A DNA stretch of 64,000 nucleotides from Patescibacteria group bacterium (GCA_041660005.1 JBAZXG010000002.1:122037-186036); one strand, 5' to 3'. Counted from the first letter of the stretch, positions 1,238-47,935 are shown. Notes: a model not told the origin generated them from the sequence alone. A program made the numbers and translations.

Positions 1238-1256
1238 GATTCCCCCAGGTCCACCA
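1238..1256 (+). repeat. direct repeat of the 3' end of tRNA-Ala (T-loop half plus acceptor strand plus ACCA), 176 bp downstream of the tRNA
   Basis: ggattcccccaggtccacca matches tRNA 3' end gattccccccaggtccacca with one C indel; an inverted tRNA T-arm-like fragment (gggaatcgaaccc) lies between at 1113-1126. Confidence 0.6.
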
Positions 1257-1430
1257 TTCGACTCGCTTCGCTCGCTCATGGCAAGCCATCCTCTGGCGAG
1301 TCGAATGCACTGAGCGTAACGAAGTGAAGCCGAAGTGCCGTCATTAAAACACCCCCAATCGAAGTGTCCTGTTGGAGCATTGCAGGGGTAAGGAGTTTTT
1401 ATCCATTCGGGTTCTCGTTATGGTGCCTAT

Positions 1431-1769
1431 ATGTCTCCAAAAGTCCTCAAATTTAGAGCACACCTCGTTCCCCTTATTCTGAGTGGGAGTAAAAAAGTTA
1501 CCTGGCGGTTATTCGATGAAAAACATTTACAGGTTGGAGATGAACTCGTGTTTCAAGACTCTGATACAGGGAAAGATTTTGCCACAGCAGAAGTTTTGGG
1601 AGTAAGAGAAAAAACATTAGGAAAAATTAGCTCTTTTGATTATCAAGGGCACGAGAAGTTTCACGATCAGGAAGACATGCTTCGGCACTACAAAGCCGCT
1701 TACGGGGAAAGGGTTGATTTGGATACAAAGGTAAAAATTGTTACCTTTAAGCTGGTTGAGAAACTCTGA
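1431..1769 (+). CDS. ASCH/PUA-like domain protein (tentative)
   Basis: 112-aa ORF with RBS-like context; resemblance to ASCH-fold small proteins is weak and by eye only. Confidence 0.4.
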   Translation: MSPKVLKFRAHLVPLILSGSKKVTWRLFDEKHLQVGDELVFQDSDTGKDFATAEVLGVREKTLGKISSFDYQGHEKFHDQEDMLRHYKAAYGERVDLDTKVKIVTFKLVEKL

Positions 1770-1790
1770 TTTAATTAAGTAGGTACTTGC

Positions 1791-2213
1791 ATGGAGAGTG
1801 AACGCAGCACATTTCCTATCGGCGTAAATGCGGTTGTTATGCGCGACAACAGCATTCTTCTCGGGTTGCGTAAAAATTCTCATGGCAGCGGAACCTGGAG
1901 TCTCCCTGGTGGGCACCTTGAGCTCGGAGAATCAGTGGTTGACGCTGTTGCGCGTGAGCTTTTGGAAGAAACAGGACTTCGACCAAGACGATTTGTGTTT
2001 TCAGCAGTTGTGAATAATGTCGATAATAGCAGGCACTATATACAGTTCGCTTTTTTAGCCGAAGAAGTGACCGGAGAGCCAGAGGTGAAAGAGCCTGACC
2101 TTTGCGAATCTTGGCAATGGTTTCCTGCGCAGCAGTTACCAGAGAACCTTTTCCCTCCCCACAAACAGCTTATTGTTTCTGCTTTGAAGGGGGACCATTA
2201 TACAGAAAGTTAA
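1791..2213 (+). CDS. NUDIX hydrolase (MutT-like)
   Basis: Nudix box LPGGHLELGESVVDAVARELLEETGL. Confidence 0.75.
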   Translation: MESERSTFPIGVNAVVMRDNSILLGLRKNSHGSGTWSLPGGHLELGESVVDAVARELLEETGLRPRRFVFSAVVNNVDNSRHYIQFAFLAEEVTGEPEVKEPDLCESWQWFPAQQLPENLFPPHKQLIVSALKGDHYTES

Positions 2214-2227
2214 AGCATATAAATTTT

Positions 2228-3325
2228 ATGGAAGAAAGAAAAAAAATTAATGTCGGTCTTATTTATGGTGGCAAGAGCGCTGAGCACGAAGTTTCACTGC
2301 GATCTGCGCGCAGTATTTATGAGGCGCTCGACAAAGACAGGTACAATGTTGTGCTCATTGGTATTAGTCACAACGGCCAGTGGTTACTTGCGAGTGAGGC
2401 AGCGCAACTTTTAACAGCCACGGCTGTCTCTGAAAAAGTCGGCACTCATGTTATTCCTGTTGAACAAGGGAACATGTCGCTTCGCGAAGTCGGCTCAGGT
2501 GAGGAACTTGGCACGCTTGATGTCGTCTTCCCTATTATTCACGGCACCGGCGGCGAAGATGGGAGCTTACAAGGACTTCTGGAATTACTGGACGTTCCTT
2601 ATGTCGGCTGTGGTGTTCTAGGTTCTGCAGTAGGTATGGATAAAGATGTTGCAAAACGTCTCATGCGTGACGCTGGCATTGCCGTTGCAAATTATGTAGC
2701 CGTGCGCGCCAATGAATCCTGGGAAGGAGAACTCGATGCCATTGCCGCGACACTGCACTACCCGTTATTTGTGAAGCCGGCAAACCTCGGATCTTCTGTT
2801 GGGGTGCAAAAAGTAAAAGATCGTAGCACTTTGAGTGCAGCGGTTGTTGAAGCGTTCACTTTTGATACCAAAGTGCTCATAGAAGAATGTATTGAGGGGC
2901 GTGAAATTGAAGTCGCTGTTCTTGGGAACGCCGATCCCAAAGCGTCACTTCCTGGTGAAATTTTGCCGCACCACGAGTTCTATTCATACGAAGCCAAATA
3001 CATTGATGAAAACGGCGCATCGCTCTCCTTGCCAGCTGCATTATCCTTCGAAGAGCAGCAAGAAGTGCAACGCGCAGCTTGTCGCGTGTTCACTACGCTC
3101 GAGCTTTATGGCATGGCTCGGGTTGATTTCTTTTTTACCAAAGATGGCCGATGGATTTGTAACGAAGCGAATACCGCGCCCGGGTTTACTTCCATAAGTA
3201 TGTATCCAAAGCTGTGGGAGCTTTCCGGTGTGCCGTTTAATGAATTGGTTGATCAGCTTATTGAGTTGGCTTTTGAGCGTAAGAAGGTGGAACGTAAACT
3301 ACGAAGGCGTTATAACAAGCGATAA
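2228..3325 (+). CDS. ddl: D-alanine--D-alanine ligase
   Basis: N-terminus INVGLIYGGKSAEHEVSLRSA, ATP-grasp core; start chosen at MEERKKINVG (the listed ORF 2102 start overlaps the upstream gene). Confidence 0.9.
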   Translation: MEERKKINVGLIYGGKSAEHEVSLRSARSIYEALDKDRYNVVLIGISHNGQWLLASEAAQLLTATAVSEKVGTHVIPVEQGNMSLREVGSGEELGTLDVVFPIIHGTGGEDGSLQGLLELLDVPYVGCGVLGSAVGMDKDVAKRLMRDAGIAVANYVAVRANESWEGELDAIAATLHYPLFVKPANLGSSVGVQKVKDRSTLSAAVVEAFTFDTKVLIEECIEGREIEVAVLGNADPKASLPGEILPHHEFYSYEAKYIDENGASLSLPAALSFEEQQEVQRAACRVFTTLELYGMARVDFFFTKDGRWICNEANTAPGFTSISMYPKLWELSGVPFNELVDQLIELAFERKKVERKLRRRYNKR

Positions 3326-3457
3326 GCAGACGAGTATTTGTTGGTAGCTCTCTTACAATTGCCAAATACAGCAGCTTTCTATAGGATAGCAATGTGAGCT
3401 GTACCTTTCGCAAACTCGCCCCAGGGGTGAGCTTTTGTTCAACTGGACTCAACGCAT

Positions 3458-4819
3458 ATGCAAAAATCGCTTAACAGAGTGCAAGATGCCTTTCTTCGGC
3501 TAGTACGCAACCGGGCGTATTCTCATGCATACAATGCTTTGAAGCAAATGCATCCTGCCGATTTGGCTCAGTTGCTTCCTTATCTACAAAAACGAGAACA
3601 GCAGTGGTTTGCCGAGAGTCTTCTCAAGACCAGGAAACTTGCTGGAGTAGTTAGTGAAATAGACGAGAATTTAGTTCTCGATTTTTTAAACCTCATTCCC
3701 GGTGAAGAATTTGTAACGGCACTCCAAGAAATTAACGCCGATGACGCCGCTGACCTTATTACGCTTTTACCTGAAGATCGGCGGCAGGTCATATTAGAGC
3801 GACTTTCCGGACCGCAGAAGAAAGCAGTAGGGAAACTTCTCGGCTACGCTCCGAACACTGCCGGAGGTATCATGAGCCCCGACTTTGTTTCGCTGCCGCA
3901 GACCTTGACTGCAGGAGAAGCAATAGAAAAGTTACGAGCGCGTGCTATTACCGGAAGCGAAGAAATTTATAACATTTACATTTGCGACGCCGAAGACCAG
4001 TTGGTCGGCGTCGTTTCTTTTAAAGACCTCGTTCTTTCACCCGTTGGTAAAACATTAGGAGACATCATGGAGCATGACCCGGTTGCGGTCAGGCCGCATG
4101 CCAACCAGGAGTTTGTGGCCGACCTTATTGCGCGCTATAACCTGCTCTCTCTGCCGGTCATTGACGAAAATCATCGGCTCGTTGGTCGCATTACGGTTGA
4201 CGACGCTATCGACGTTTTGAAAGAAGAAGCAACAGAAGATATCTACCACCTGGGAAACCTCGGCCAAGAAGATCACATCTCAACTCCTGTATTAACTTCA
4301 ACAAAGCAACGTGTACTTTGGTTGCTCATTAACCTGGCGACGGCCATCCTCGCAGCCGCTTCTATCGCAATTTTTAGCGATACCATTTCAAAGTTCGTTA
4401 TACTGGCCGCGCTCATGCCGATTGTTTCCGGCATGGGAGGTAACGCAGGAACGCAGTCGCTGACGGTTGTGGTGCGGGGGTTGGCGCTCGGCGAAGTCGA
4501 CTGGAGTTTGGCGCTTAAAGTTGTTTGGAAGGAACTATCGGTTGGGTTACTCAATGGTATCATTCTCGGCATTGTTATTGGTGTTCTTACCTTTATTTGG
4601 TATCACAACTTGGCCTTAGCATTGGTCATGACCTTGGCTATGGTTGGTAACCTTATTATTGCCGCTTTGGCCGGAGCGTTTATTCCGCTCCTTCTCAGAA
4701 AAATGCATCAAGACCCAGCCCTTGCTTCCAGTATCTTTGTGACAACCGCAACTGACGTCGGTGGCTTCGTCCTCTTCCTTGGGTTAGCCACAGTGTTTAT
4801 CCAACTCATTATTAAATAG
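3458..4819 (+). CDS. mgtE: magnesium transporter MgtE
   Basis: MgtE N-domain (DDAADLITLLPEDRRQVILERL), CBS pair, C-terminal 5-TM domain with PIVSGMGGNAGTQS. Confidence 0.9.
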   Translation: MQKSLNRVQDAFLRLVRNRAYSHAYNALKQMHPADLAQLLPYLQKREQQWFAESLLKTRKLAGVVSEIDENLVLDFLNLIPGEEFVTALQEINADDAADLITLLPEDRRQVILERLSGPQKKAVGKLLGYAPNTAGGIMSPDFVSLPQTLTAGEAIEKLRARAITGSEEIYNIYICDAEDQLVGVVSFKDLVLSPVGKTLGDIMEHDPVAVRPHANQEFVADLIARYNLLSLPVIDENHRLVGRITVDDAIDVLKEEATEDIYHLGNLGQEDHISTPVLTSTKQRVLWLLINLATAILAAASIAIFSDTISKFVILAALMPIVSGMGGNAGTQSLTVVVRGLALGEVDWSLALKVVWKELSVGLLNGIILGIVIGVLTFIWYHNLALALVMTLAMVGNLIIAALAGAFIPLLLRKMHQDPALASSIFVTTATDVGGFVLFLGLATVFIQLIIK

Positions 4820-4825
4820 TTCGAC

Positions 4826-5584
4826 ATGGACGCGCTCGTCGTGCGGGATTTGAAAAAAAGTTACAACGGTATCCCGGCCCTCGACGGGATTTCTTTTCAG
4901 ATTAATGAGGGAGAATTTTTTGGGTTTCTCGGCCCCAATGGTGCAGGTAAGACGACGACTATCGGCTGTACGGTTGGCCTAGTAACCCCAGACGGCGGGT
5001 CTGTAGAAGTTTTTGGGCATAACGTGGTTAGCGAATATCGCACTGCGCGTCGCCTCATTGGTCTTTCACCACAAGAATTTAACGTTGATATTTTCCGTCA
5101 CCCTTGGGAAACGTTAATTAATAACGCCGGCTACTTTGGCATACCGCGAAGCATCGCCAAAGAGCGCGCTGAACGGTTACTTCGCCGCCTTGGTCTTTGG
5201 GAGCATCGTTTCAAGCGTTTCCAAAGTTTGTCTGGCGGCATGAAACGCAGGGTCCTGTTGGCAAAGGCGCTTATACATGAGCCGAAACTTTTGATTCTTG
5301 ATGAGCCGACCGCTGGCGTCGACGTTGAGCTTCGGCACTGGCTTTGGAATGAGCTAAAAAGAATACAGAGTAACGGTACAACAATTTTGTTGACCACTCA
5401 CTACTTAGAGGAAGCTGAACAGCTCTGCGAACGATTGGCTATCATTACGCATGGGAAGTTGGCGCTTGTTGAAAAAACAAGTGACCTTTTGAAGCGGTAT
5501 GGTGAGAAAAAACTTGAGGAGATTTACCTGCAAATCACCGACAGCGGAGATAAAGCAGAAGACGGTAACGCACCAGCAATATGA
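4826..5584 (+). CDS. ABC transporter ATP-binding protein (ABC-2 type)
   Basis: Walker A GPNGAGKTT, signature LSGGMKRR, Walker B LLILDEPT. Confidence 0.9.
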   Translation: MDALVVRDLKKSYNGIPALDGISFQINEGEFFGFLGPNGAGKTTTIGCTVGLVTPDGGSVEVFGHNVVSEYRTARRLIGLSPQEFNVDIFRHPWETLINNAGYFGIPRSIAKERAERLLRRLGLWEHRFKRFQSLSGGMKRRVLLAKALIHEPKLLILDEPTAGVDVELRHWLWNELKRIQSNGTTILLTTHYLEEAEQLCERLAIITHGKLALVEKTSDLLKRYGEKKLEEIYLQITDSGDKAEDGNAPAI

Positions 5585-6345
5585 ACTGGGTTGGACTTGC
5601 CACGCTTTACTGGCGCGAAATTCGTCGAACCTTTCAGGTTTCGATGCAGACGATTTTCCCGCCTATCATTACGTCTCTTTTGTACATTCTCATTTTTGGG
5701 AACGTTCTAGGATCTCGTATTCAAGAAATTTTACCCGGAGTGAGTTACATTGATTTTATGATTCCGGGCCTCCTCATGATGAACGTAATCTCTGCCAGCT
5801 TTTCAAGTAGTTCGGCGGTTATTTATATTGGTAAGTTACAAAACACCACTTCAGAACTTTTAGTTGCACCACTTTCCTATTTAGAAATTGTTTTAGGGTT
5901 TGTGCTAGCGGCGACAACACGGGGTTTAATTGTTGGGATGGGCGTTTATGGCGTGGCTCTCTTTTTTACGACCGCAACCTTCGCGCATTTTTGGATGTTT
6001 CTCTATTTTGTTCTGGCGACATCACTCCTCTTTGGTGCCGTTGGGGCGATGGTGGGGCTCTGGGCAGAAACGTTTGATCACGTTAATTTACCGAATACGT
6101 TTGTTTTGCTACCCCTCTCATTTTTTGGTGGGGTGTTCCATTCTATTAGACTGCTGCCGAGCTGGATGCAGACGCTGAGTCAAGCAAATCCCGTTTTTTA
6201 CATGGTAAATGGCATTCGCGCGAGTATGATTGGTACTGCTGACGTGCCGATGTATGTATCAGCAATCGTCGTGCTACTCCTTGCTGCTGTCAGTTTGACC
6301 TTTTGCGTTCGACTTTTTCAAAAAGGATACAACTTGCGGAGTTAG
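5581..6345 (+). CDS. ABC-2 family transporter permease
   Basis: 6-TM hydrophobic profile, translationally coupled to upstream ATPase (ATGA overlap). Confidence 0.8.
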   Translation: MNWVGLATLYWREIRRTFQVSMQTIFPPIITSLLYILIFGNVLGSRIQEILPGVSYIDFMIPGLLMMNVISASFSSSSAVIYIGKLQNTTSELLVAPLSYLEIVLGFVLAATTRGLIVGMGVYGVALFFTTATFAHFWMFLYFVLATSLLFGAVGAMVGLWAETFDHVNLPNTFVLLPLSFFGGVFHSIRLLPSWMQTLSQANPVFYMVNGIRASMIGTADVPMYVSAIVVLLLAAVSLTFCVRLFQKGYNLRS

Positions 6346-6346
6346 T
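6321..6346 (+). repeat. 26-bp direct repeat, left copy (3' end of permease gene); matches 8689..8714
   Basis: aaaaggatacaacttgcggagttagt vs aaaaggatataacttgcggagttagt, one mismatch, 2368 bp apart. Confidence 0.8.
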
Positions 6347-6458
6347 GTAAAATCTTGTGGGGTTTTTGCGGCGGTGCTAAGGTACCGTCGTTTGCTTTTA
6401 GTGTCCGGGAAGATGTACTAGACAGGTCTTTACCAGAGGAATAGGAGGAAGTTGGGTC

Positions 6459-7256
6459 ATGAAAGAGTTTTTGTTGCCAATGTATCTCGTGGGTATGGGT
6501 ACAGGGAGCGGTTCGACTCTTGCGGCCATAGAATTGGCGACCAAGGAAGGCGGTCCTTTGCATGGACTCGTCAGGATGGTCCTCGCAATCGCCACCAACG
6601 CCGAGGCCGGCCTCATCAAGAGGTTGACCGATCTTGGCATGGAGGAAGGCGAGAACCTTCTGGTCATGCCGTACAAGAAGGAGAAGTCCGAACAGTGGGG
6701 TCGGGACATTCTCCGGCGGTGCCGCGCATTCGGCGCAAATCAGTTCGGACTTTTCGGCTGTGTCCCGACGGTACCAGAGTCATGCATTGAAGCACTGATT
6801 ACCGACGGCGTGCGCTGCACAAACCAACATCCTGCGTGACCGAGAGAGTTCGGTGGCGTCGGCATGATTGGGAAACGCGCAGTGGCGGCGCAGCTCCTTT
6901 TTGAGAGGATGTTGCCTCGCGGGAACGACTTCACCGCTGCTGCCGTTTGCCAAGAGTTGGATCCCGCTGTCGACGGCGGGCGCGTTCTTCACTACGAGCG
7001 CTGCCCTATCCTCGACACCGACGACGCTGAATCGCTTCAGAAGCGGCTGCTCACGATCGAGCACAAGGTGCAGATCGAAGCGCTGCGTCGAGCAGCACTC
7101 GGTGAGCTCATTCCTGTCGAGTATCCTTCGCCAGTGAAGGCGGGGGAAGAAACTCGCTGTCGCTGGGCGAAAGAGGCGGCATTTGCTTTGTACCGCGAGG
7201 GCATTCCGTACCGGAAGTCTCTTGCTCAGATCTGGGCGCAGCAAGCCGCTCTATAG
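6459..7256 (+). pseudogene. phosphoribosylglycinamide formyltransferase-like (PurN family) interrupted by an in-frame TGA at 6837-6839; GC-rich
   Basis: ORF 6459..6839 (GTGSGSTLAAIELA ... NQHPA*) and same-frame ORF 6864..7256 (LPRGNDFTAAAV...DTDDAESLQKRLLTIEHKVQIEAL) together cover the PurN/formyltransferase fold; the two halves are in the same frame, separated by one TGA. Confidence 0.6.
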
Positions 7257-7269
7257 GAGACACAAGATC

Positions 7270-8562
7270 ATGAGAATCGGAATCATTGATGGAGGTGGCC
7301 GTGGAGCCGCCATAGCGAACGCGCTTTACAACACGGGTCGCAGGACTCGTGATGTAACGCACGTTTACAACATTGGTCGCAGTGTGGTCGGCGGATACTT
7401 CGCCGGCTCGGCGCCGACGATCAACCCGAACGACGACGAGGCCATCGCGGCCTACGTCAGGAAGATGAAGATCGACATCATCATTCCGGCACGCGACGCG
7501 GAACTCTGCGCTGGTCTCGTCGATCGTCTGACGGCGCGCGGTATCACCACGGTCGGCCCAACGGCTGAGGCGGCTCAGCTTGAAGGAAGCAAGGGTTTCT
7601 TTGCCGACCTCTGTGCTACGGTCGGAATTCCTTCCCCAGCGTCGATCGTCTGTACCAGTACAGCTCGGGCATCCTCGGCTGTGCGTCTTCTACACCGTCG
7701 GTTTGGTCAACTCCCCGTTGAGAAAGCTGATGGGCTGTGGGATGGAAAGGGAGTAGTCGTTCCAGAGACCCTCGACGAGGCCGATGCAGCAATCGCGATG
7801 CTGATGGCTGGCGGCAAAGATGTCGTCATTCAAGAGCGTCTCGACGGAGTCGAGTTCTCTTTCTTTGCTCTTTCAGACGGGAAGGTTGCAGTTCCGGTCG
7901 GGTCGGCCATTGACTACAAACGCCTTCTCGACGGCAGCATTGGTCCGAATACGGGCGGCATGGGAGCGGTGTCGCCAGTTCCGTTCGTGACCAAGATTCT
8001 GGAAGATCGAGTGATGAGAGAGGTCGTGCGTCCGCTCCTGTGGGTGATGGCCCGCCGGGGTACGCCATGCCGCGGTATCATCTATTGCGGGATGATGTTG
8101 ACCAAAGAGGGGCTGAAGGTCCTCGAGGTGAACGTGCGTTTTGGTGATCCCGAGGCGCAAGGTCTCCTTCCGCGGCTCGATCAGGTAAACGGTGCGACCT
8201 TGGCTGAGCTGCTCGTCGCCACCACCAAGGATGGTGAGCTCGAAAAGCTCAGCGTCCGCCTGCGGCCGGAGGCCGCAGTCTGTGTGGTGATGGCGTCCGC
8301 GGGATACCCCGAGGCGCCGAGGGAGGGTGATCCCATCCAGGGGCTTATCACGAACGTGGAGGGCACCGAAGTCTTCCACGCCGGCACCAAGCTCGCTGAC
8401 GACAGGCGAACTTTCCTCACCGACGGTGGGCGCGTTCTCGACGTCGTCGGGTTCGCCCCGACGGTTTTCGAGGCACGTAAGCGCGCCTATGCTCGCGTCG
8501 ATACCATCAGCTGGGATGGTGAGCAGCACCGTCATGACATCGCCGAAGACATAGCCGCCTAG
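7270..8562 (+). CDS. purD: phosphoribosylamine--glycine ligase (PurD), GC-rich
   Basis: MRIGIIDGGGRG N-terminus, near-exact PurD motif AAQLEGSKGF, ATP-grasp; RBS aggaga upstream of 7270. Confidence 0.8.
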   Translation: MRIGIIDGGGRGAAIANALYNTGRRTRDVTHVYNIGRSVVGGYFAGSAPTINPNDDEAIAAYVRKMKIDIIIPARDAELCAGLVDRLTARGITTVGPTAEAAQLEGSKGFFADLCATVGIPSPASIVCTSTARASSAVRLLHRRFGQLPVEKADGLWDGKGVVVPETLDEADAAIAMLMAGGKDVVIQERLDGVEFSFFALSDGKVAVPVGSAIDYKRLLDGSIGPNTGGMGAVSPVPFVTKILEDRVMREVVRPLLWVMARRGTPCRGIIYCGMMLTKEGLKVLEVNVRFGDPEAQGLLPRLDQVNGATLAELLVATTKDGELEKLSVRLRPEAAVCVVMASAGYPEAPREGDPIQGLITNVEGTEVFHAGTKLADDRRTFLTDGGRVLDVVGFAPTVFEARKRAYARVDTISWDGEQHRHDIAEDIAA

Positions 8563-8583
8563 CTTGGCGGCGTAACACACACA

Positions 8584-8665
8584 AAGGAGGGTTCAAACAG
8601 AACACAAGGAGGGAAGGCGGCGTTGTCACAGGGCAACGCCGTTTTTCCATGAGGAATATTTTGTG
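8584..8665 (+). repeat. about 80-bp unit containing an RBS-like aaggaggg and a rho-independent terminator (cggcgttg...caacgccg + TTTTT); copy 1 of 2
   Basis: Near-identical to 9209..9290; hairpin CGGCGTTG/CAACGCCG followed by gttttt. Confidence 0.75.
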
Positions 8666-8688
8666 ACTTTTCTTAGAAAAGTTTTTAG

Positions 8689-8714
8689 AAAAGGATATAA
8701 CTTGCGGAGTTAGT
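8689..8714 (+). repeat. 26-bp direct repeat, right copy (duplicate of permease 3' end), followed by hairpin gtcaac-tttaaacg-gttgac + T7 terminator at 8719-8750
   Basis: See 6321..6346. Confidence 0.8.
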
Positions 8715-8806
8715 ACGGGATTGGTCAACTTTAAACGGTTGACTTTTTTTGCAAAAAAGAGAAGAGTAGTTTGGTTCCACACGTTCAAGACAGGGGAGGT
8801 AAACCC

Positions 8807-9151
8807 ATGGCCGATTGCATTACGGATATGCTGAAAGGACAAGACCTCGCTGGCTGCCGAATCGAGACCTGGATCAGTCTCGAGTGGCCGACAGATGCAG
8901 GGAAGAGCGAGCACGTTGAGTACTTTTCACTGGCGGACCGCAAGGTCGTTCAAGACCTTGCTACCTCTGAAGGGATCCCTCCGCATTTCAAGGAGGTGCA
9001 AGTTCTGACGGACGGATGCGGTTCCGGTCTCATTGTTGGCAGGAGTGCTCACCTGTCAGCGGGCGAGGCCGCAAGGGCAAAGATCCAACTCAACGCCAGA
9101 GCAAGACTTCGTTCCATCGATGTAATAGCACTGGGCCTTTCGACGGAGTGA
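8807..9151 (+). CDS. hypothetical protein (about 114 aa), GC-rich cassette between two copies of the 80-bp terminator unit
   Basis: ORF with RBS ggggagg 8 nt upstream of ATG 8807; no recognisable motif. Confidence 0.4.
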   Translation: MADCITDMLKGQDLAGCRIETWISLEWPTDAGKSEHVEYFSLADRKVVQDLATSEGIPPHFKEVQVLTDGCGSGLIVGRSAHLSAGEAARAKIQLNARARLRSIDVIALGLSTE

Positions 9152-9208
9152 GTACCATCGGAACGGACATCGCCGCCGGCCTTTAAGGCTAACGCAGCAA
9201 TTCGACTC

Positions 9209-9290
9209 AAGGAGGGTCAAACAGAACATGAGGAGGGAAGGCGGCGTTGTCACAGGGCAACGCCGTTTTTCCATGAGAGGAATTTTGTCC
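9209..9290 (+). repeat. 80-bp terminator-containing unit, copy 2 of 2
   Basis: Matches 8584..8665. Confidence 0.75.
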
Positions 9291-9662
9291 ATTTCTTTGT
9301 GCGGGCAAAGAAATGGACGAAAGAAAGCCCGCCCCGCATCGACGCTCCAGGTCGGCAGTCATTCCGAAACAAACACGGCGGCAATGAACTCGCCTTCAGC
9401 TCAAACAGCATTGCCGCTCAGTCGTGTTCGTTTCGTCTGTCTGTTCTCCCCGGTCGATGAGGGGGTGTTGCAGAGTCCAAATCCCATAGGATCGGCGTCA
9501 GAGCTTGCGATGGAAGTGAGTGCTCTAATCTTTTAGGAGACGGTCGTGGTAATGCGAACAGGGTCTGTGGCGTTTGCTAGTTGTTGATAATTTTTGACTT
9601 GCAGTTTTGCCTTTTGATTTTTGAATTACTACTTACCTGTGCAGCCCGAGGACGTTATGTTT
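9289..9662. repeat. R1 composite structured element, copy A (begins with hairpin ccatttctttg-tgcgggca-caaagaaatgg, ends ...cagcccgaggacgttatg)
   Basis: Shares modules with 30523..31007, 48861..49290, 60020..60356: the covarying stem module (c/a)atgaactcg(y)c...caaacagcat; the piece cccataggatcggcgtcagagcttgc (inverted relative to copy D); and gttgataatttttgacttgcagttttg shared with copy B. Confidence 0.8.
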
Positions 9663-9753: not shown

Positions 9754-11280
9754 TTATTCCCATTCCGTCGTCGCTGGCGGTTTTGAGGTGATGTCGTAGA
9801 GAACGCGGGTTGCGCCTTTTACTTCGTTTGTTATGCGCCAGGAAAGACGTGCTAGAAAAGCGTGCGGTAATTGCGCCCAGTCTGCGGTCATGATGTCTGA
9901 AGAAGTGATGATGCGGACCACCACGGGATAAGCATAACAGCGTTCGTCCCCAGTAACACCGACTGTTTTTTGACTGAGCACCTGTGCAAAGTAGTGATAA
10001 AATTCATCTTCTTTTTTCACGCGGTGAATTTCTTGGCGCACAATTAAATCTGCTTCACGCACAATGCGCAATTTTTCTGGCGTAACCTCGCCCGCAATGC
10101 GTATGGCGAGACCCGGCCCCGGGAAGGGTTGTCGCCAAACGAGCGCCTTTGGTAGACCCAGTGATTCTCCAAGTTCGCGTACTTCGTCTTTGAAGAGGTC
10201 ACGTAGTGGCTCAATTAACTTCCATTTGATTCCTTTCGGAAGACCGCCCACATTGTGATGTGATTTAATAACGCGTGCTGTTTTACCGCTCGCGGCTCCT
10301 GCAGACTCAATGACATCTGAGTGAATAGTCCCTTGGGCGAGAAACGTTGGACGCGGGTGTATATTTTTGACGGCTCGATCAAACGTGCGAATAAATTCTT
10401 TGCCGATAATTTTTCTTTTCTGTTCCCCGAAGGTAACACCCTTAAGTTTACTTAGAAATTGTCGCTCTGCATTAATGTAACGGACGCGACAACCGAGTGT
10501 AGAGAGGATTGCGTGCACCTCATCTGGCTCGTTTTGCCGCATGAGTCCTTGGTTTACAAAAATCGCAGTCAACTGTTTTCCGATTGCGCGGCTGATGAGC
10601 GCTGCTGTTACTGTGGAGTCAACACCTCCAGAAACCGCAGCAACAACTGGTTCGTTGCCGACGGTACTTTGAATAGTTTTAATTTTTCGCTCCACAACAT
10701 TTTTAATGTCCCAGTCTTTTTTGCATTTGGCGACAATAAAAAGAAAGTTTTTTAGTAGCGTCATGCCGTAATCGGTGTGTTCAACTTCAGGGTGAAACTG
10801 AATGCCATAAAGCTTCTTTTTTTCGTTTGCAATTGCCGCGTCGGGAGAATTGTCGGTCGTCGCTATATGGGTGAATCCTAACGGCAGTTTAGTGACAATG
10901 TCACCGTGCGACATCCAAACACGCGAGCGCTCAGGAATATTTTTAAAAAGTGGTGTTGCTTTTTCTAGGCGGAGCGTCGCCGGACCGTATTCTCCCTTTT
11001 TTCCCCGTCCGACTTCTCCGCCGAGCTTATGCGCCATGAGTTGCATGCCGTAACAAACACCGAGAACAGGAATGCCGAGTTGGAAAAGCTGCTTGCTGTA
11101 GCTCGGCGCGCCGGTAGTGTAGACAGAATTTGGCCCACCTGAGAGCACAATAGCGCAGGCGTTTTTCAGTTTTGAAGTGGGTGTGGTAAAAGGAACGAGT
11201 GTCGCCTCTACTCCCAGCGAACGAATACGCCTACCAATGAGGTGGGAGTACTGTGAACCGAAGTCAATGACGTACACCAT
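9754..11280 (-). CDS. guaA: GMP synthase (glutamine-hydrolysing)
   Basis: N-terminal GATase MVYVIDFGSQYSHLIGRRIRSLG, ATP-PPase SGGVDSTV, C-terminal dimerisation domain. Confidence 0.92.
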   Translation of the reverse strand: MVYVIDFGSQYSHLIGRRIRSLGVEATLVPFTTPTSKLKNACAIVLSGGPNSVYTTGAPSYSKQLFQLGIPVLGVCYGMQLMAHKLGGEVGRGKKGEYGPATLRLEKATPLFKNIPERSRVWMSHGDIVTKLPLGFTHIATTDNSPDAAIANEKKKLYGIQFHPEVEHTDYGMTLLKNFLFIVAKCKKDWDIKNVVERKIKTIQSTVGNEPVVAAVSGGVDSTVTAALISRAIGKQLTAIFVNQGLMRQNEPDEVHAILSTLGCRVRYINAERQFLSKLKGVTFGEQKRKIIGKEFIRTFDRAVKNIHPRPTFLAQGTIHSDVIESAGAASGKTARVIKSHHNVGGLPKGIKWKLIEPLRDLFKDEVRELGESLGLPKALVWRQPFPGPGLAIRIAGEVTPEKLRIVREADLIVRQEIHRVKKEDEFYHYFAQVLSQKTVGVTGDERCYAYPVVVRIITSSDIMTADWAQLPHAFLARLSWRITNEVKGATRVLYDITSKPPATTEWE

Positions 11281-11298
11281 GGGGAGTTGAATGGTAAC

Positions 11299-12300
11299 TT
11301 ATTTGATAAACGTTGCAGCGAATGCGTTATCGATGCACGTTTTAATTTCTTGCTCAGAAAAAACTTTGTTGTTTTTTAGAAATTCTAATTCTTTTTCCAG
11401 GTTCGTTTCATACATTTCTGGGCCGTCAGTATTGATGGTCAATTTGACCCCAGCAGCAAACAGTGTGCGATATGCTTTTTTAAGCTCGGCAAGATTTTTA
11501 AATACCCCCACCTTAAGGTTTGAAGTGGGACAGGCTTCAAGAGCTATATTTTTTTCGGCGAGCAAGTTCATCAGTTTTGGATTGCGGTATGATTTGACCC
11601 CATGACCGATGCGCATAGGTTCAATTTTTTTCACCACAAATTCCATTTCTTTGAGAGATCCTTCCTCGCCCGTATGAATCGTAACCCCGAGCCCTTTCTT
11701 TTTTGCTTCTCTGAACAAGTCGACATACTGGCTCATTCTGAAAGTTTGTTTTTGTGGGCCAGCGATATCGATACCGATAATGCCTCGATGCTGGTATTTG
11801 AGCGTTTTTTGATAAATGATTTCGTTTTGTTCAAAGGTGAATTCACGATCGAGCATGAGAATGATGCCGGCGCGAACGGTCGGGTATTCGAGCAGTGCTC
11901 GTTCGAGCCCGCGGATGGCAGCATGAATAATGTGATCGAGATCGCGCTCGCCGTTACGGTTACGCTTCATGGGGTTGAAGCGAATTTCGTGGAGCACAAT
12001 GTTATGTGACCGATATGCTCCGCCAATCGTTTGATGCACAGCTGGCTCCATGGCTACTGGTGAAGATTGAATGAGCTCAGTCCAGTGGTATTTGGCGCGA
12101 TCAATCTCTTTCAAACTTTTATAATTGCGTTTGACGGTTACCATGTCTTCAAACTCCCAGTAGTTTTTCGTGGGAAGACGAATCCCTTGGTCATGCGCGA
12201 GCGTCCAAAGTACAGCCGCATCTACTGCGCCCCCCATGTGCGTGTGCAGTTCAGCCAAAGGAATTCTTTTTGCGGTTGGTAAATGTTGTTCGTTTGGCAT
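11299..12300 (-). CDS. add: adenosine deaminase family protein
   Basis: LAELHTHMGGAV metal-binding motif and C-terminal INTDGP motif. The start is set at MPNEQHL (12300), immediately after the guaB stop; the 128-aa upstream extension of the listed ORF overlaps guaB out of frame and is rejected. Confidence 0.7.
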   Translation of the reverse strand: MPNEQHLPTAKRIPLAELHTHMGGAVDAAVLWTLAHDQGIRLPTKNYWEFEDMVTVKRNYKSLKEIDRAKYHWTELIQSSPVAMEPAVHQTIGGAYRSHNIVLHEIRFNPMKRNRNGERDLDHIIHAAIRGLERALLEYPTVRAGIILMLDREFTFEQNEIIYQKTLKYQHRGIIGIDIAGPQKQTFRMSQYVDLFREAKKKGLGVTIHTGEEGSLKEMEFVVKKIEPMRIGHGVKSYRNPKLMNLLAEKNIALEACPTSNLKVGVFKNLAELKKAYRTLFAAGVKLTINTDGPEMYETNLEKELEFLKNNKVFSEQEIKTCIDNAFAATFIK

Positions 12301-12301
12301 A

Positions 12302-13360
12302 CTAAGCAGTATAGTTTGGCGCCTGTCGTTCGATAATAATTGAGTGTGGATGACTTTCGGCTCGTCCTGCAGGCGTGATACGTATGAAGCGGGCTTTTTT
12401 CTGGAGCTCAGGAATCGTTTTTGCGCCGCAGTACCCCATGCCAGATTTGAGACCACCGGCGATATGGAAAAGGATGTCGGAAACGCCGCCCTTGAAGGGG
12501 ACAATGCCTTCAACTCCTTCTGGCACATATTTCGCGGCACCCTTTTGCCCATAGCGGTCTGAGCTCTGGCCGTTTTGCATAGCACCCAAAGAGCCCATGC
12601 CGCGGTAGCGTTTGAATTGTTTCTTATTGATAGTAATAACATCTCCAGGTGCTTCACTTGAACCGGCGAGCATGGAGCCAAGCATGACTACCGAGGCGCC
12701 AGCGGCCAGCGCCTTGACGACATCACCAGAATAACGAATGCCGCCATCTGCGATTACTGGAATGTTTTTCTTTTTGGCGACCGCGGTGATCTCCATAATG
12801 GCCGTGAGTTGTGGAACACCCACACCAGCAACAATGCGGGTGGTGCAAATAGCACCTGGTCCGACGCCAACTTTCAGCGCATCGGCGTAGGGGAGAAATG
12901 CTTTGGCTGCTGCGGCCGTTGCAATGTTACCGATGATCAATTCAGCTCGCAGTTTTCGTCTAAAAATTTTCATGCTCTGAATAACATCTGGTTTGTGAAC
13001 ATGTGCTGCGTCAACAGCAATAACGTCAACCCCCGCTTTGTCGAGCGCGAGCGCCCGTTCGAGATCATGCGGCCCGACAGCAGCACCAACGCGTGCCTTC
13101 TTTTTTTTCACTGCCTGCACCATTGTAACCTGTTCGGCAGTTGTGCAGTTTCTGTGCAGGATTCCTAGCCCGCCGATGGCATCCAAAGCTATTGCCATCC
13201 GGCTTTCGGTGATTGTATCCATGGCTGCAGAAATAATAGGCAAAGCAAGACGCAGCTTTTTTGTAAGCCGCGTTTCAATGCTCGCCTCTCGTGGATTAAT
13301 GTTCGAGAGCTGAGGAACCAGGAGGACGTCGTCGAAGGTGATACCTAAAGGAATGTCCAT
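12302..13360 (-). CDS. guaB: IMP dehydrogenase / GMP reductase family protein (short form without CBS pair)
   Basis: TIM-barrel IMPDH motifs [23 protein letters not shown]; 352 aa. Confidence 0.8.
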
Positions 13361-16692: not shown

Positions 16693-16769
16693 TGGTGCCC
16701 TCGGCAGGAATCGAACCTGCAACCTTATGGGTAGAAACCATACGCTCTATCCAATTGAGCTACGAGGGC
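16693..16769 (-). tRNA. tRNA-Arg (anticodon UCU)
   Basis: Minus-strand cloverleaf GCCCUCG...CGAGGGC-A-CCA, D arm GCUC-AAUUGGAUA-GAGC, anticodon stem UAUGG/CCAUA loop UUUCUAC, T arm GCAGG-UUCGAUU-CCUGC. Confidence 0.85.
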
Positions 16770-16917: not shown

Positions 16918-17035
16918 ATTATTTATTTTTGCCAATACCTCGTCGGCTTGCCGCGAAGATGTCATATACTGAGGCAAAAATATCCCTCGTAGCCGAGTTT
17001 GACTCGGCGAAGTGGGATTACCTAGTTTTCCCGTG
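16918..17035. repeat. R2 structured element, copy 1 (atttttgcc...cctcgtcggcttgccgcgagg...ggcaaaaat...gcgaagtgggattacct)
   Basis: Same element at 30231..30390 and 47963..48054; nested inverted repeats (9-bp outer stem, inner hairpin CCTCG(T)CGG-CTTG-CCGCGAGG). Confidence 0.8.
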
Positions 17036-17983
17036 AAACTGTTCGTGAACGTGACGCAGCTGTTGGTCGGTGAGGTGCGTGTAAATTTGCGTTGTGGTTA
17101 CTGAAGCGTGACCAAGAAGACTCTGCACTGACCGAAGATCAGCACCGTTAATAAGAAGGTCAGTGGCGAACGAGTGGCGGAGCGTATGCGGGCTCACTTT
17201 TTTTGTGATGCCGGCAACCTTGGCGTAGCGGCTGACGATGCGTTCAATACTGCGTGGTGTTAGTGGTGCGCCGCCCTCTTTGCGCTCGCGTTCCGTTTGT
17301 TTTGTCTTGGCGCGATCGTGGCGAATAAAAAGATAGGGCGAGGCGTCATGTCGCGCTTCAATATAAGAGCGAAGCAGCGCACGAGCGTCAGAAGAAAGAA
17401 ATACCACGCGCACCTTGCTACCCTTACCACGAACGCTGAATTCGGTGAGTGTATGCGCTTTGGTGTCGCGCAGGTTCACTTGGTCAATTTTTAAGTTTGC
17501 CAACTCAGAGACGCGCAGACCAGTTGAAAATGTTGATGCCAGCATCGCTTGGTCGCGTAGCATGAGAATTTTGGGCTGCTTCACGAGCGTTGGCGCGTTA
17601 AGTAGGCGTTCTAGTTCCGTGCTACTTAGAAATTCAATGGAGCGATCTGGCATTTTCATGAGTTCAATTTTCTCTGGCGCGAGACTCGTGACATCGCGCT
17701 TCGCTAGATATTTCAAAAATGAGCGCAGAGCAATGAGATGGTAATTCTGTGTATTTTTTTTAAGCGACTCACCCCGCGCATCAGTTAAACGATTCAGCCA
17801 TAGGCGATATTGCCGTATCAGCTCCGCGGATAGGTCTTTCGCATTTTTACTGCCACGTTCCTCGGCCCAGGCAACAAACCGATCAAGGTAGAAACTATAA
17901 TTGCGAATAGTCGCCGCGCTGCGGTTTCTTTCTATTTCTAAATATTCTAAAAATTCTTTGCGATAACGTTCGAGGTCGGCCAT
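17018..17983 (-). CDS. tyrosine recombinase XerC/XerD family
   Basis: C-terminal catalytic HTLRHSFATDLL...LLGHASVTTTQIYTH; N-terminal core-binding domain; start at MADLERY. Confidence 0.85.
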   Translation of the reverse strand: MADLERYRKEFLEYLEIERNRSAATIRNYSFYLDRFVAWAEERGSKNAKDLSAELIRQYRLWLNRLTDARGESLKKNTQNYHLIALRSFLKYLAKRDVTSLAPEKIELMKMPDRSIEFLSSTELERLLNAPTLVKQPKILMLRDQAMLASTFSTGLRVSELANLKIDQVNLRDTKAHTLTEFSVRGKGSKVRVVFLSSDARALLRSYIEARHDASPYLFIRHDRAKTKQTERERKEGGAPLTPRSIERIVSRYAKVAGITKKVSPHTLRHSFATDLLINGADLRSVQSLLGHASVTTTQIYTHLTDQQLRHVHEQFHGKTR

Positions 17984-18611
17984 AGCAGTATTGTACGACA
18001 CAACAGAGTGTGTGGCTACTTTACATCGAAGATGACTTTGCGTTGATGCAGTGTTGCGTCGTGAGGAAGGAATAGTGCTGCGCGACGTGGTGTTGCTATT
18101 TTTGGCTGGCACGGTCGAGGGTTACTATTCAACACGTTATTAGGTCTATATCCTTTCACTCCTGAAGTTTACTGAAGGACATCTCCACAAGAAGAGGGCA
18201 AGAAGTTTGACCGCTCGTTTTCCGTCGCACACTACCGTGACCCATAAACCAATGGTGTTCGAGCGACATCACAAGGCTAGTATCTCTCGAAGTGAAGCCA
18301 TGATCGTGTCTGCATAAGCTGGATACAAAAAGCTGTGAATATTGAGAGAAAAAGAAAAAGACCCCCCGGCGCAGAGAAAAAATTTGCGCCGAAGGGTCGA
18401 GGTGATCGAGGATCAAGTCCTCAATTCGATCGAATGAATTGTGCTGTTACTACTGCACAAACGCGGACGCTCCTCCATAGCGTTTGTCTGTGTCGCCTTC
18501 TGCAAAACTAATATCGTAATCGAGTCGGCCGTTACGGATGCGCCAGTGGGCAGCCCCATAGAAGGATAAACCGGAGCCGCCGTAGTTACGGCGGAGGCGG
18601 AAAGACCACAC

Positions 18612-19424
18612 TTACCCGACGAAGAGCAGCCCGCCCGAATAGTCGCAGTACCCAAGCTCCAGGTACGACCTGCCGCTGACACTAATCCTGCTGTCGCGCG
18701 GGCCGAAGAACAACGACCCGCCGGACCGCCACTGGAGTGCGGCCATGTCATAGAGAAGAGTCATTCTGTCCCGCGCGAGCTCAGCCGGGTACATGACCTG
18801 GCCGATCGAGCTGTCGACACCACCAGTCAGAAGGAAACCCTCGTAAAGGTCCTCCATCTGCTCGCGCTGGGCGTTTATCGACCAGCCCTGCAAGGGATTC
18901 GGGAAGTATATCCCGACGACGGGACCTCCCCTCATGCGCTCGACGAGTCGCTCGTGACGGCTGCCCTCGACAATCGAGACCTGCTCGATGAGGTCCCCTT
19001 CGATGTTCTGACAGAACTTCCGGGCGGGGAACCGGGTCTCGTAGCTGCGGCCGACCGCAGGAAGGAAGGTCTCCTTCAATGCGCGACCGTAGTCCGACAC
19101 GTCGAACTGCGGGATCACGATCGGGAGGTGCACGGCCTTGAGGATGTTGGCAATGCTCGGCGTGCTCGCGATCTGCGCAAGCAGTGCCTCACTCTTGCAC
19201 TTGAAGCCGGCTTCGCCGAGAGCGAGCAGGCTCTCACCCTCGAAGGTGGACGACAGTCGTCCCCAGGGAGCGGTGTAGTCACACGCTGCCTGATCGGGGT
19301 TGTAGGTGAAGTCCGGTGCGCAGACAGCGGCCTTGATCCTCGTAGAAACAAGGCGTTGACCATTGTCCTCGTTGAAGAATATGGCCTCTTGCTCCCGATC
19401 TTCGTCGATCATTGATGTATTCAT
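18612..19424 (-). CDS. hypothetical protein (270 aa), GC-rich island
   Basis: Intact ORF in a region of visibly higher G+C; no recognisable motif. Downstream 18113-18611 has only fragmentary ORFs. Confidence 0.4.
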   Translation of the reverse strand: MNTSMIDEDREQEAIFFNEDNGQRLVSTRIKAAVCAPDFTYNPDQAACDYTAPWGRLSSTFEGESLLALGEAGFKCKSEALLAQIASTPSIANILKAVHLPIVIPQFDVSDYGRALKETFLPAVGRSYETRFPARKFCQNIEGDLIEQVSIVEGSRHERLVERMRGGPVVGIYFPNPLQGWSINAQREQMEDLYEGFLLTGGVDSSIGQVMYPAELARDRMTLLYDMAALQWRSGGSLFFGPRDSRISVSGRSYLELGYCDYSGGLLFVG

Positions 19425-30210: not shown

Positions 30211-30240
30211 TCTCCGGCCTCTGGCCGGAGTTTATTTTTG
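30211..30240 (+). terminator. recA terminator (ctccggcc-tc-tggccggag + TTTATTTTT) overlapping the start of R2 copy 2
   Basis: Perfect 8-bp stem followed by T-run. Confidence 0.65.
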
Positions 30241-30390
30241 CCTAACCACCTCGTCGGCTTGCCGCGAGGTTACCGTTGCAGAAGACAAAAATATCCCGCG
30301 TAGCTCCCTGACCGTCCGTAGCCTTGCTGTGTCCCGCCGTAGTTTTATACGAGCGGGAGCGAAGGAGGTTAGCGAAGTGGGATTACCTAT
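30231..30390. repeat. R2 structured element, copy 2 (expanded by an internal insertion of about 70 bp)
   Basis: tttatttttgcctaaccacctcgtcggcttgccgcgagg ... gcgaagtgggattacct. Confidence 0.8.
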
Positions 30391-30522: not shown

Positions 30523-31007
30523 AACCTCGCCCCGTCTGACGGGGCTGTGGGTTGCCTACTTTCTTACTCGCCTAAGAAAGTAGGCGGAAAGAACGGCGCC
30601 CCTGTGTCGACACTATCGTCGGCGAACGTTCCTCAGTGCGGGTGGCGACAATGAACTCGTCTTCGTCTCAAACAGCATCGTCGCTTATTCACCCGCACTT
30701 CGTCCGTTCGCTCTCCTCGGTCGGCAATGGGGTTTGGCAGAGTGAAGTGAACAATTCCTTTAGGAAACGGCCGTGGTAACGGGAGCGGCGTCTACGGTGT
30801 TTATTTGCAGTTGATAATTTTTGACTTGCAGTTTTGACTTTTGCCTTTTGATTTATAATTTCTGCTAGCCCATACAGCTCGAGGACGTTATGTTTATGTA
30901 ATGAAACTCCTACAGGATCGGCGTCGGTAATGACCGAAGAGGAACATTCAGGGCGGGATTTCTTTCACCTCTTTCCTTGTCTAAACAAAGAAAGGAGTAC
31001 GGTTTCT
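30523..31007. repeat. R1 composite structured element, copy B
   Basis: hairpin ctactttctta-ctcgcc-taagaaagtag, module gacaatgaactcgtc...caaacagcatcgtcgc, gttgataatttttgacttgcagttttg, cagctcgaggacgttatg, ctcctacaggatcggcgtc, terminal hairpin. Confidence 0.8.
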
Positions 31008-34900: not shown

Positions 34901-34936
34901 TTACACCATTTTGTGCGTACGCACAAAATGGTGTAA
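34901..34936. repeat. 36-bp perfect palindrome P, copy 1 (TTACACCATTTTGTGC-GTAC-GCACAAAATGGTGTAA)
   Basis: Identical sequence at 47900..47935; flanking tattatgttttt is also shared in inverted orientation. Confidence 0.9.
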
Positions 34937-37946: not shown

Positions 37947-38104
37947 GATCGCCGCACTTGCGGCAGCGTCTTATTCTTAATGAGCGCTGTTGATCGCCGC
38001 ACTTACGACAGCGTTTCGTTCTCGGTAAGTGTTGTTGACCCTGCACTTGTTCGGCAGCGTCTCGTTATCAATCGGTACTATAGGATCGCTGCACTTACGG
38101 CAGT
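37947..38104. repeat. degenerate tandem repeat, about 4 units of about 45 bp (GATCGCCGCACTTRCGRCAGCGTYT...)
   Basis: Units begin at about 37947, 37992, 38037, 38084; intergenic between ychF and the exonuclease gene. Confidence 0.7.
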
Positions 38105-47899: not shown

Positions 47900-47935
47900 T
47901 TACACCATTTTGTGCGTACGCACAAAATGGTGTAA
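47900..47935. repeat. 36-bp perfect palindrome P, copy 2
   Basis: Identical to 34901..34936. Confidence 0.9.

Follow-up and report, generated by a model that had tools for sequence, protein, structure and literature searches.

A purine gene cluster, probably old and decaying piecemeal, at a fixed site in a Candidatus Uhrbacteria genome

Introduction

Do GC-rich genes that lie behind a direct repeat in a reduced bacterial genome mark the recent arrival of a foreign island, or are they what is left of something older? The question is raised by a 64,000-nt stretch of DNA from a Patescibacteria group bacterium (GCA_041660005.1 JBAZXG010000002.1:122037-186036), hereafter the window, in which positions 6347-9290 carry a gene related to purN, for glycinamide ribonucleotide (GAR) formyltransferase, and purD, for phosphoribosylamine--glycine ligase, between the gene of an ABC-2 type transporter permease and the purine-interconversion genes guaA, add and guaB. 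A reading of the sequence alone had taken this segment for a recent 2.37-kb insertion from a high-GC donor, possibly a host, bracketed by a 26-bp duplication of the permease gene's 3' end and already in decay. Its sequence observations all hold, as do the foreign-looking composition and the ongoing decay; the recent insertion, the att or target duplication, the displaced terminator and the host donor do not. We conclude instead, at a probability of roughly 0.7, that an old purine cluster is decaying piecemeal at a fixed site, and that the repeat (26 bp, or 33 bp at its full extent) is the scar of a later, local recombination and not of the arrival of a foreign island.

The same site in five other lineages

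The source genome of the window is a metagenome-assembled genome (MAG) of Candidatus Uhrbacteria, within the Patescibacteria or candidate phyla radiation (CPR); in a protein search its permease is 86, 62 and 60% identical to those of Uhrbacteria MAGs. Five other lineages share the gene order ddl - mgtE - ABC ATPase - ABC-2 permease on one side of the site and guaA - add - guaB on the other, with permeases at this locus that are 86% (L006), 73% (L026), 70% (L002) and 57% (L028) identical to that of the window. In the window, the permease gene (5581-6345, + strand; Pfam ABC2_membrane, 107 bits), a backbone gene, is followed by term1 (6368-6401, + strand), which a terminator scan predicts to be its own intrinsic terminator: a hairpin at 6368-6391, 22 nt past the first repeat copy, with a 10-bp G+C-rich stem, a TTTGCTTTT tail and a fold of -18.9 kcal/mol (z -4.5). 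A hairpin about 20-50 nt downstream of the permease stop is conserved in position in five relatives (L002, L026, L034, L006 and L028), and its core, GGTGCTAAGGTACCG, is the same in the window, L002 and L026. Thus, the pur genes lie beyond the permease terminator, and not between a stop codon and its terminator, as had been proposed for the 2.37-kb segment.

What follows the terminator differs from lineage to lineage. In the closest relative, L006 (Uhrbacteria CG10_..._48_11), a term1-like hairpin precedes a purD that is broken in at least three frames with stops, a terminator unit called D4 (see below) and guaA, and no relic of the PurN-like gene was detectable there. In L002/L003 (JGI), term1 is followed by a 76-nt remnant of the 3' end of the PurN-like gene, whose score of 36 compares with at most 17 in shuffles, and by an intact purD, D4 and guaA. 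Beyond term1, L026 (NCBI/JGI Patescibacteria) has a PurN variant that is intact, 230 nt remaining from the 3' end of purD, D4, purL, purQ, another D4 and guaA, and L034 (Logan) has, likewise beyond term1, an intact PurN variant and then purD, where the contig ends. The distant L028 has a sigma-54 activator, a PurN-like gene and purD, then purQ and purL on the opposite strand, and guaA. Decay therefore differs by lineage, a TGG-to-TGA change in the window and deletions or frameshifts elsewhere, with purL-purQ kept in some relatives only, and the suspicion of ongoing decay is borne out by the nonsense codon here and by the relics and broken purD and PurN-like genes in relatives. No empty site was found in public data, all five relatives that share the locus carrying pur genes or relics there, and a metagenome scan with the term1 core matched only two contigs already known, with no further haplotypes and no empty site. 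De novo purine genes had been called unexpected beside a guaA/add/guaB salvage set; in these relatives their position next to guaA-add-guaB is a conserved arrangement. Complete de novo purine synthesis was found in about 32% of CPR MAGs in one survey (PMC11608272).

The divergence of these genes speaks to their age. Synonymous sites of the backbone are saturated among the lineages (proportion of synonymous differences, pS, 0.72-0.87), and backbone proteins are 70-81% identical, with non-synonymous divergence (dN) of 0.14-0.24. PurD of the window and L002 share 65-66% of their amino acids (dN 0.27, synonymous divergence dS about 1.5, dN/dS 0.18), against 70-74% for backbone proteins, and the PurN variants of the window and L026 share 62% (dN/dS 0.17). 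Hence, pur divergence parallels that of a saturated backbone, which indicates that the cluster has travelled with the backbone since before the lineages split, under purifying selection, and speaks against a recent acquisition. The pur proteins of the window, L002, L026 and L034 are closest to each other, at 62-65% identity versus 50% at most or 39% elsewhere among billions of proteins. The idea of a host donor is not supported: every named relative of the PurN variant comes from Patescibacteria, and beyond the clade no relative of PurD exceeds 50% identity; that the closest homologues of the PurN variant belong to the same lineage is the very outcome that the sequence-only reading had named as grounds for abandoning an acquisition.

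The composition that first drew attention to the segment is real. The G+C content of 6501-8500 is 0.586-0.64 against a window median of 0.49 (z 3.4-5.3 by windowed G+C), and the tetranucleotide profile of the pur block is the most deviant of 89 sliding chunks in the window, so that the claim of a visibly higher G+C stands by both measures that had been suggested for it. With G+C of 0.59-0.61 versus 0.49, the genes differ from their host genome as those of a genomic island would.

A lineage-specific repeat and a second, degenerate unit

The duplication of the permease end is likewise present: the 26 nt at 6321-6346 are found again at 8689-8714 with one mismatch, and no such match arises in 100 shuffles. 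The full direct repeat measures 33 nt and has a sharp left edge, 30 of its 33 positions being identical between copy 1 (6314-6346, + strand; the last 33 nt assigned to the permease, that is, its 3' end plus 1 nt) and copy 2 (8682-8714, + strand), which is non-coding. The permease end is itself palindromic (CTTTTTCAAAAAG). Copy 2 matches the permease end of this lineage at 25 of 26 positions, the end in the nearest relative, L006, being visibly different, and no second copy of their own permease end was found in L002, L006 or L026 with up to six mismatches in 26 allowed. Thus, the repeat is specific to this lineage and younger than the pur cluster.

Copy 2 forms the left edge of a second unit, which stands head to tail with the first. 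Unit 1 consists of the permease end, term1, the PurN-like gene, purD and a first D4 (D4a); unit 2, degenerate and about 0.6 kb long, consists of the copied permease end, a different terminator (term2), about 0.45 kb of orphan sequence, a purD relic and a second D4 (D4b), and downstream of it come a repeat element, R1, and then guaA. The joint of the two units (8665-8681) is a small A/T palindrome that resembles the first hairpin of R1. The hairpin with a T7 tract reported after the second repeat copy is indeed there, as term2 (8723-8751, + strand; GGTCAAC...GTTGAC), an A/T-rich terminator predicted by the terminator scan with a fold of -11.8 kcal/mol (z -2.6); it is unrelated to term1 and no counterpart was found in the relatives. 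Each of the four folds, term1, D4a, D4b and term2, looks like an intrinsic terminator, a stable hairpin, G+C-rich in the usual definition, with a U tract after a stop codon.

The D4 unit, about 90 nt long, is, as predicted from its sequence, purD's own terminator. D4a (8584-8674, + strand) contains a hairpin with a 17-bp stem (8611-8648), whose A-rich 5' arm pairs with a U tract in the 3' arm, a shape expected of a bidirectional terminator (-28.6 kcal/mol, z -6.5 to -7.6), and the hairpin core of D4b (9209-9297, + strand; core 9235-9272) is identical. Homologues follow purD in L002, L006 and L026, the unit is recognisable in L028 as the convergent terminator of purD and purQ, and in all loci fetched it occurs only after purD or purQ; Rfam has no match to it at the gathering threshold or at E up to 1. 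D4 is also doubled in L026 (10925-11010 and 14640-14725, 91% identical, flanking purL-purQ), and in L028 purL-purQ are oppositely oriented, with a single convergent terminator serving both them and purD, arrangements that suggest inversion or duplication mediated by the palindromic terminator. Within the window, D4a and D4b are 90-94% identical, versus 71-85% between genomes, which indicates that the rearrangement is young and lineage-specific while the pur cluster is old.

Just before D4b lies a frameshifted relic of the purD 3' end (9137-9186, + strand), encoding ..EYHRN/DIAAGL*, which aligns to the last 30-46 nt of purD from L026 (0 of 300 shuffles as good) and L002 (2 of 300, p 0.007). Only these last ~50 nt before D4b are demonstrably derived from purD. 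The interior of unit 2 (8715-9136) has no significant similarity to unit 1, which favours recombination with a related haplotype over tandem duplication in place. It holds most of the small open reading frame (ORF) that had been noticed between the two repeat units (~90 nt, 90-94% identical, as above), a putative orphan at 8807-9151 (+ strand; 114 aa, G+C 0.56) with a GGAGG box 7 nt upstream of its ATG; among 5.8 billion proteins it matches only itself, and it has no Pfam, NCBIfam or PHROG match. The orphan was also considered as a purD remnant and rejected, with E above 5 in BLASTP against two PurDs, a probability of 0.4% in hhalign against a 24-sequence PurD profile and non-significant results in tblastx, blastx and nhmmer with a purD DNA profile; 27 nt of the region do resemble purD codons 201-210 (p 0.017), a match too weak to rely on.

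Could this structure have been made by assembly? The source is a metagenome-assembled genome, and GC-shifted segments with flanking repeats are classic places for mis-joins. However, a Logan contig (L001, SRR18595301) is 100% identical to window positions 1253-8002, across the left junction and the TGA discussed below, and a JGI contig from another sample (L025, 3300014208) is 100% identical to 8456-9584, from the purD end through both D4 copies and repeat copy 2 to the start of R1. The structure is thus not an assembly artefact, and with relatives showing the same gene order, a chimera or sequencing error behind the island, the repeat or the TGA is hardly credible.

Inactivation of a Patescibacteria-type PurN variant

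The PurN-variant gene (6459-7256, + strand), GAR formyltransferase-like, is inactivated by a single in-frame TGA (6837-6839), as had been claimed; the codon is seen in two assemblies and falls inside the catalytic NQHPAxP motif. The deposited annotation of the window's proteins (as 'Patescibacteria group bacterium', locus tags WC817_02005 to 02020) lists the two halves as separate hypothetical proteins. The interrupted frame otherwise has the fold and the Asn-His-Asp triad of the family: it matches Pfam Formyl_trans_N (PF00551) at 29.8 bits against a cut-off of 26.1 and keeps N122, H124 and D172, which are invariant in the family alignment. The family profile finds GAR transformylases as its best PDB matches (E 4e-30). 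Like PurN (TIGR00639), the variant keeps the N/H/D triad and resembles solved GAR transformylases most; it differs in its length of about 245 aa, in extra residues inserted behind the NQHP motif and in an extended C-terminus, and intact members score 22-86 bits against the TIGR00639 equivalog cut-off of 150. The PurN variant is thus a divergent Patescibacteria subfamily rather than a curated equivalog; it counts 418 representatives at E of 1e-3 or below, and those with a name come without exception from Patescibacteria (Uhrbacteria, Nomurabacteria, Pacebacteria and 'Patescibacteria group').

Intact orthologues exist in L026 (P0122), with His at the TGA site, and in L034 (P0327), with Trp. Where L034 reads CAT CCT GCG TGG, the window reads CAT CCT GCG TGA, and the next 27 residues are identical in both. 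Hence, a single TGG-to-TGA transition is the simplest history, and in view of the lack of any other lesion in the ORF the inactivation is likely recent. A rival is that the TGA is read through or recoded, or that the two halves act as a split enzyme, so that the variant is still functional. The frame is otherwise intact over 265 codons with its catalytic N, H and D, L034 has Trp at the site, an ATG stands 8 codons downstream of the TGA, and TGA encodes Trp in some reduced genomes. Against this, TGA ends ordinary window genes (e.g. that of the ABC ATPase) at the lengths predicted by orthologues, which makes recoding unlikely; the recoding known from Patescibacteria assigns TGA to Gly and occurs in other lineages; the TGA parts the catalytic N and H from D; and relatives have lost the PurN-like gene outright. 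A still functional product is highly improbable. Selenocysteine was considered separately and set aside, the residues aligned to the TGA being Trp, His, Pro and others, never Cys.

An intact but divergent purD

The purD gene (7270-8562, + strand; G+C 0.61) had been described as intact, and is: its ORF encodes GARS_N, GARS_A and GARS_C domains and scores 359.4 bits against TIGR00877 (cut-off 288), so that it has both the equivalog score and the three domains of a PurD. Although it passes that cut-off, the N domain of the clade is divergent. In a comparison of N domains (window 7270-8562, P0002 and L034 1050-1262), the near-universal REHA reads RGAA in the window, GPE reads ARD and GLAAGKG reads GLWDGKG; L034 retains GGREHA, and the window and L002, both full-length sequences compared, lack the APGNPG motif. 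Of 158 otherwise conserved PurD positions, 43 are changed in the window, 28 of them shared with L002 and 15 found in the window only. There is no evidence for a relaxation of PurD specific to the window, the changes at conserved sites being symmetric (15 window-only versus 15 L002-only, besides the 28 common to both). The purD lineage appears to be under purifying selection despite its changed near-universal residues, with GAR synthesis as a predicted function. Exact look-ups of the protein (430 aa, and the 392-aa JGI call) found no record.

Outside the clade, PurD has no match above 50% identity, and the best named hits are Alphaproteobacteria at 43-47%. PurD of L028 is also nearer to alphaproteobacterial sequences than to that of the window, in a comparison set chosen by similarity to the query. 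An alphaproteobacterial donor, suggested by the top hits, was tried and is not established, with identities of only 45-50% and a comparison set picked in this manner.

A possible history and its rivals

Taken together, these results are probably best explained as follows. An old purine-biosynthesis cluster (PurN variant, purD and, in some relatives, purL-purQ) would have stood behind the permease's terminator, convergent with guaA-add-guaB, and would have been passed on together with the backbone from a time before the divergence of at least five sampled lineages, mostly under purifying selection. It would now be undergoing piecemeal loss that differs by lineage: in the window genome, the PurN variant would have been knocked out recently, most likely by one TGG (Trp) to TGA change in the catalytic NxHP motif, with purD intact and purL-purQ absent. 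The repeat would be the left edge of a second, collapsed unit running from the permease 3' end to the purD 3' end and the purD terminator, joined to the first within short A/T-rich palindromes, those of the R1 start and the permease end. Its most likely origin would be unequal or illegitimate recombination, later than the split from the nearest sampled relative, with a probable partner in a closely related haplotype whose purN-purD was by then reduced to an orphan filler of about 0.45 kb. The sequences directly show the shared site, the relics, the parallel divergence, the lineage-specific repeat and the nonsense codon; the mechanism and direction of this exchange, like the original source of the GC-rich genes, are what we infer from the arrangement. 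Illegitimate recombination and unequal crossing-over between diverged alleles are known from naturally transformable bacteria. As in homology-facilitated events of that type, two diverged versions of a locus stand head to tail here, with boundary homologies that differ by 6-9% and a joint at short A/T-rich palindromic microhomology; the partner allele, in contrast, was not observed, and the window genome does encode RecA and DprA.

A recent entry of the 2.37-kb purN-purD island by site-specific recombination or transposition, with a 26-bp att or target duplication and a high-GC donor, perhaps a host, would account for a direct repeat (26/33 bp) that brackets GC-rich genes with a hairpin and T7 after copy 2, for the strongly atypical composition and for best PurD matches outside the clade in high-GC Alphaproteobacteria. 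Integrase-mediated islands with att repeats at gene 3' ends also share with this locus the repeat copies at a 3' end and the atypical G+C. Unlike in such islands, there is no integrase, the content occurs in relatives that have no repeat, the island does not end at the right repeat and a terminator lies upstream of the supposed island. In particular, att repeats mark both ends of acquired DNA, but right of copy 1 stands the permease's terminator, conserved in five relatives, and right of copy 2 stand a purD relic and the purD terminator again; L002, L006 and L026, with island or relics, have no second permease end. Transposon target duplications are identical repeats of about 2-15 bp accompanied by terminal inverted repeats, whereas this repeat, 33 bp in length and mismatched at 3 positions, is too long, and terminal inverted repeats were not reported. 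No integrase or transposase is encoded in 6347-9290, where the ORFs are the PurN variant, PurD and the orphan only, and the tyrosine recombinase closest to it (17018-18112) belongs to the backbone and occurs in L002 as well. With the same genes or relics at the site in five other lineages, pur divergence in step with the backbone, a PurN variant of Patescibacteria type and a best outside PurD match of only 50%, such an insertion is very improbable. Unlikely, too, though to be taken more seriously, is a tandem duplication within the genome, from the permease 3' end to the purD terminator, by slippage between A/T-rich palindromes, the interior of the second copy then being lost or replaced. Both boundary repeats are window-like and similarly diverged (permease end 91%, D4 90-94%), the joint lies in small palindromes and the D4 hairpin core is identical in both copies. 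However, the unit 2 interior is unlike unit 1, term2 is unrelated to term1, and the relic aligns significantly with the 3' ends of purD in L026 and L002 but, within the window purD, best with another part of the gene; these mismatches mean that extra replacement events are needed.

Several observations also weigh against an old, vertically inherited cluster. In every lineage the pur genes have a third-position G+C (GC3) of 0.62-0.67 (0.67 in the window purD), even in L002 with a backbone GC3 of 0.29-0.34 (backbones overall, 0.29-0.49). Long residence predicts amelioration, yet GC3 stays high at near-saturated synonymous sites, an unexplained discrepancy that might stem from repeated gene flow, from gene conversion or from selection on composition. 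Moreover, PurD of the window is nearer to alphaproteobacterial PurDs (46-48%) than to the same-locus PurD of the distant L028 (37%), so that purD may at some time have undergone replacement within the lineage. The last 10 residues of the relic are those of the L026 relic and not those of purD in the window or L006, yet the adjoining repeat is window-like, a combination that no single simple event would produce and that suggests a mosaic history. No database searched contains the haplotype proposed as partner (permease - term2 - orphan ORF - relic - D4), and the genome was covered over 64 kb only. A recombination hot spot behind the permease terminator, where GC-rich, terminator-bounded blocks arrive repeatedly from GC-rich Patescibacteria so that composition never ameliorates and gene sets differ among lineages, would explain the persistent GC3 against backbones of 0.29-0.49, the variable content flanked by D4 units (purL-purQ in L026, the orphan unit here) and D4 copies that are more alike within than between genomes. 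GC-rich Uhrbacteria with purN/purL of native composition do exist (L032, GC3 0.77-0.86), the PurN variant is GC-richer than its surroundings also in the unrelated CPR contigs L029 and L033, and related lineages come from JGI samples with neighbouring numbers. On the other hand, the pur proteins of the window, L002, L026 and L034 are by far the closest to each other, relics of the 'missing' genes are in place, which fits loss over differential gain, and no recombinase is tied to D4, which occurs only after purD or purQ in the loci fetched. We regard the hot spot as improbable, and we give little credence to a related proposal, an integrase-independent exchange point at which Uhrbacteria living together, some of them GC-rich, trade or renew D4-flanked blocks through homologous or illegitimate recombination, with the repeat and unit 2 as a fresh scar, which would explain why the high G+C outlasts synonymous saturation; if true, it would be a cassette-like mechanism of gene flow in CPR bacteria.

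Other features of the window

The pur cluster adjoins conserved convergent purine-interconversion genes on the - strand, guaA (9754-11280), add (about 11305-12264) and guaB (about 12308-13360), together spanning 9754-13360. Elsewhere, the window encodes housekeeping genes (ddl, mgtE, pnp, ftsK, recA, recQ, folD, glyA, murD, topA and dprA); in the 64 kb, Pfam found no pur-gene domains in the largest remaining ORFs and tblastn found neither purL nor purQ. Between the pur cluster and guaA, neighbour to the former and no part of it, lies copy A of R1 (9290-9662, + strand), which had been placed correctly after the small ORF. This structured intergenic repeat of about 330-400 nt recurs in the window at 30557-30925 (+), 48880-49300 (-) and 59990-60370 (-) and in L002 at 11480-11935 (-), where the copy at the pur locus is inverted relative to the window. 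Its base pairs covary strongly: in the alignment, 87.6% of cells are paired versus 41-45% with the partners slid, and 40 pairs are changed on both sides versus 3-12 when slid, values that 0 of 500 shuffles reach. All pairs of one 10-bp helix covary, and invariant G-U pairs favour the strand as aligned. Rfam has no match at the gathering threshold or at E up to 1. R1 may be a new multi-copy structured RNA or a structured mobile repeat of Uhrbacteria.

A second repeat family, of 72-nt and 22-nt units that are 69-100% identical, occurs at 16922-17025, between tRNA-Arg (16693-16769) and the tyrosine recombinase gene (17018-18112), and at 30233-30390 and 47962-48056, 170-800 nt from R1. A repeat finder reports a 45-nt tandem duplication at 37947-38036 (76% identical; GATCGCCGCACTTGCGGCAGCG...). 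A perfect 36-nt palindrome, TTACACCATTTTGTGCGTACGCACAAAATGGTGTAA, is present twice with 100% identity, at 34901-34936, just upstream of a dapA relic, and at 47900-47935, just upstream of the repeat at 47962. This dapA (35099-35975, - strand) is a second GC-rich (0.60) biosynthetic gene in decay, split by a frameshift: the ORF at 35241-35975 covers DapA profile positions 2-180 of 286 (214 bits), and the C-terminal part is in another frame, in the ORF at 35099-35539. Other GC-rich patches (z 3-4.5) lie at 18612-19424 (-), 38749-39330 (+), 57812-58920 and 56001-56500, the last within dprA. The first is a 270-aa ORF with GC3 0.78 between a XerC-like recombinase and rpsO, and is not at that spot in L002. 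The GC-rich ORFs at 18612-19424, 38749-39330 and 58192-58920 have no Pfam, NCBIfam or PHROG match, and 57812-58117, scanned against Pfam only, has none there. As for a phage origin, no viral contigs carry a PurD relative, the D4 pattern or the R1 pattern, and PHROG has no match for the GC-rich orphans.

Implications for purine synthesis in Patescibacteria

The locus offers a commonplace, though well-resolved, example of a reduced genome losing a pathway step by step, marked in addition by a more recent scar of local recombination. It resembles the decay of pathways in Mycobacterium leprae, Rickettsia and insect endosymbionts and the patchy nucleotide synthesis of CPR bacteria, in that different genes of one pathway are hit in sister lineages, relics stay in place and the salvage genes guaA-add-guaB are kept. 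It differs in that the genes keep a foreign composition past synonymous saturation and in that purD is intact and constrained in two lineages without its neighbours. A guaAB-add cluster for purine interconversion also sits in the plasticity zone of Chlamydia, where a reduced genome likewise groups these three salvage genes and relatives retain them variably; the cluster described here, by contrast, is kept by every relative examined and adjoins de novo pur genes, and the organisms are unrelated.

Two loose ends are perhaps worth more than the finding itself: the GC3 above 0.6 in a genome with a backbone GC3 of 0.3, and the covariation of the R1 repeat. The locus also carries a caution, namely that atypical G+C and a flanking direct repeat are insufficient to call a recent insertion. 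What looked like a fresh island from a host becomes a dated example, with six lineages caught at different stages of purine-pathway loss, of how ultra-small Patescibacteria shed de novo purine synthesis stepwise and keep salvage.

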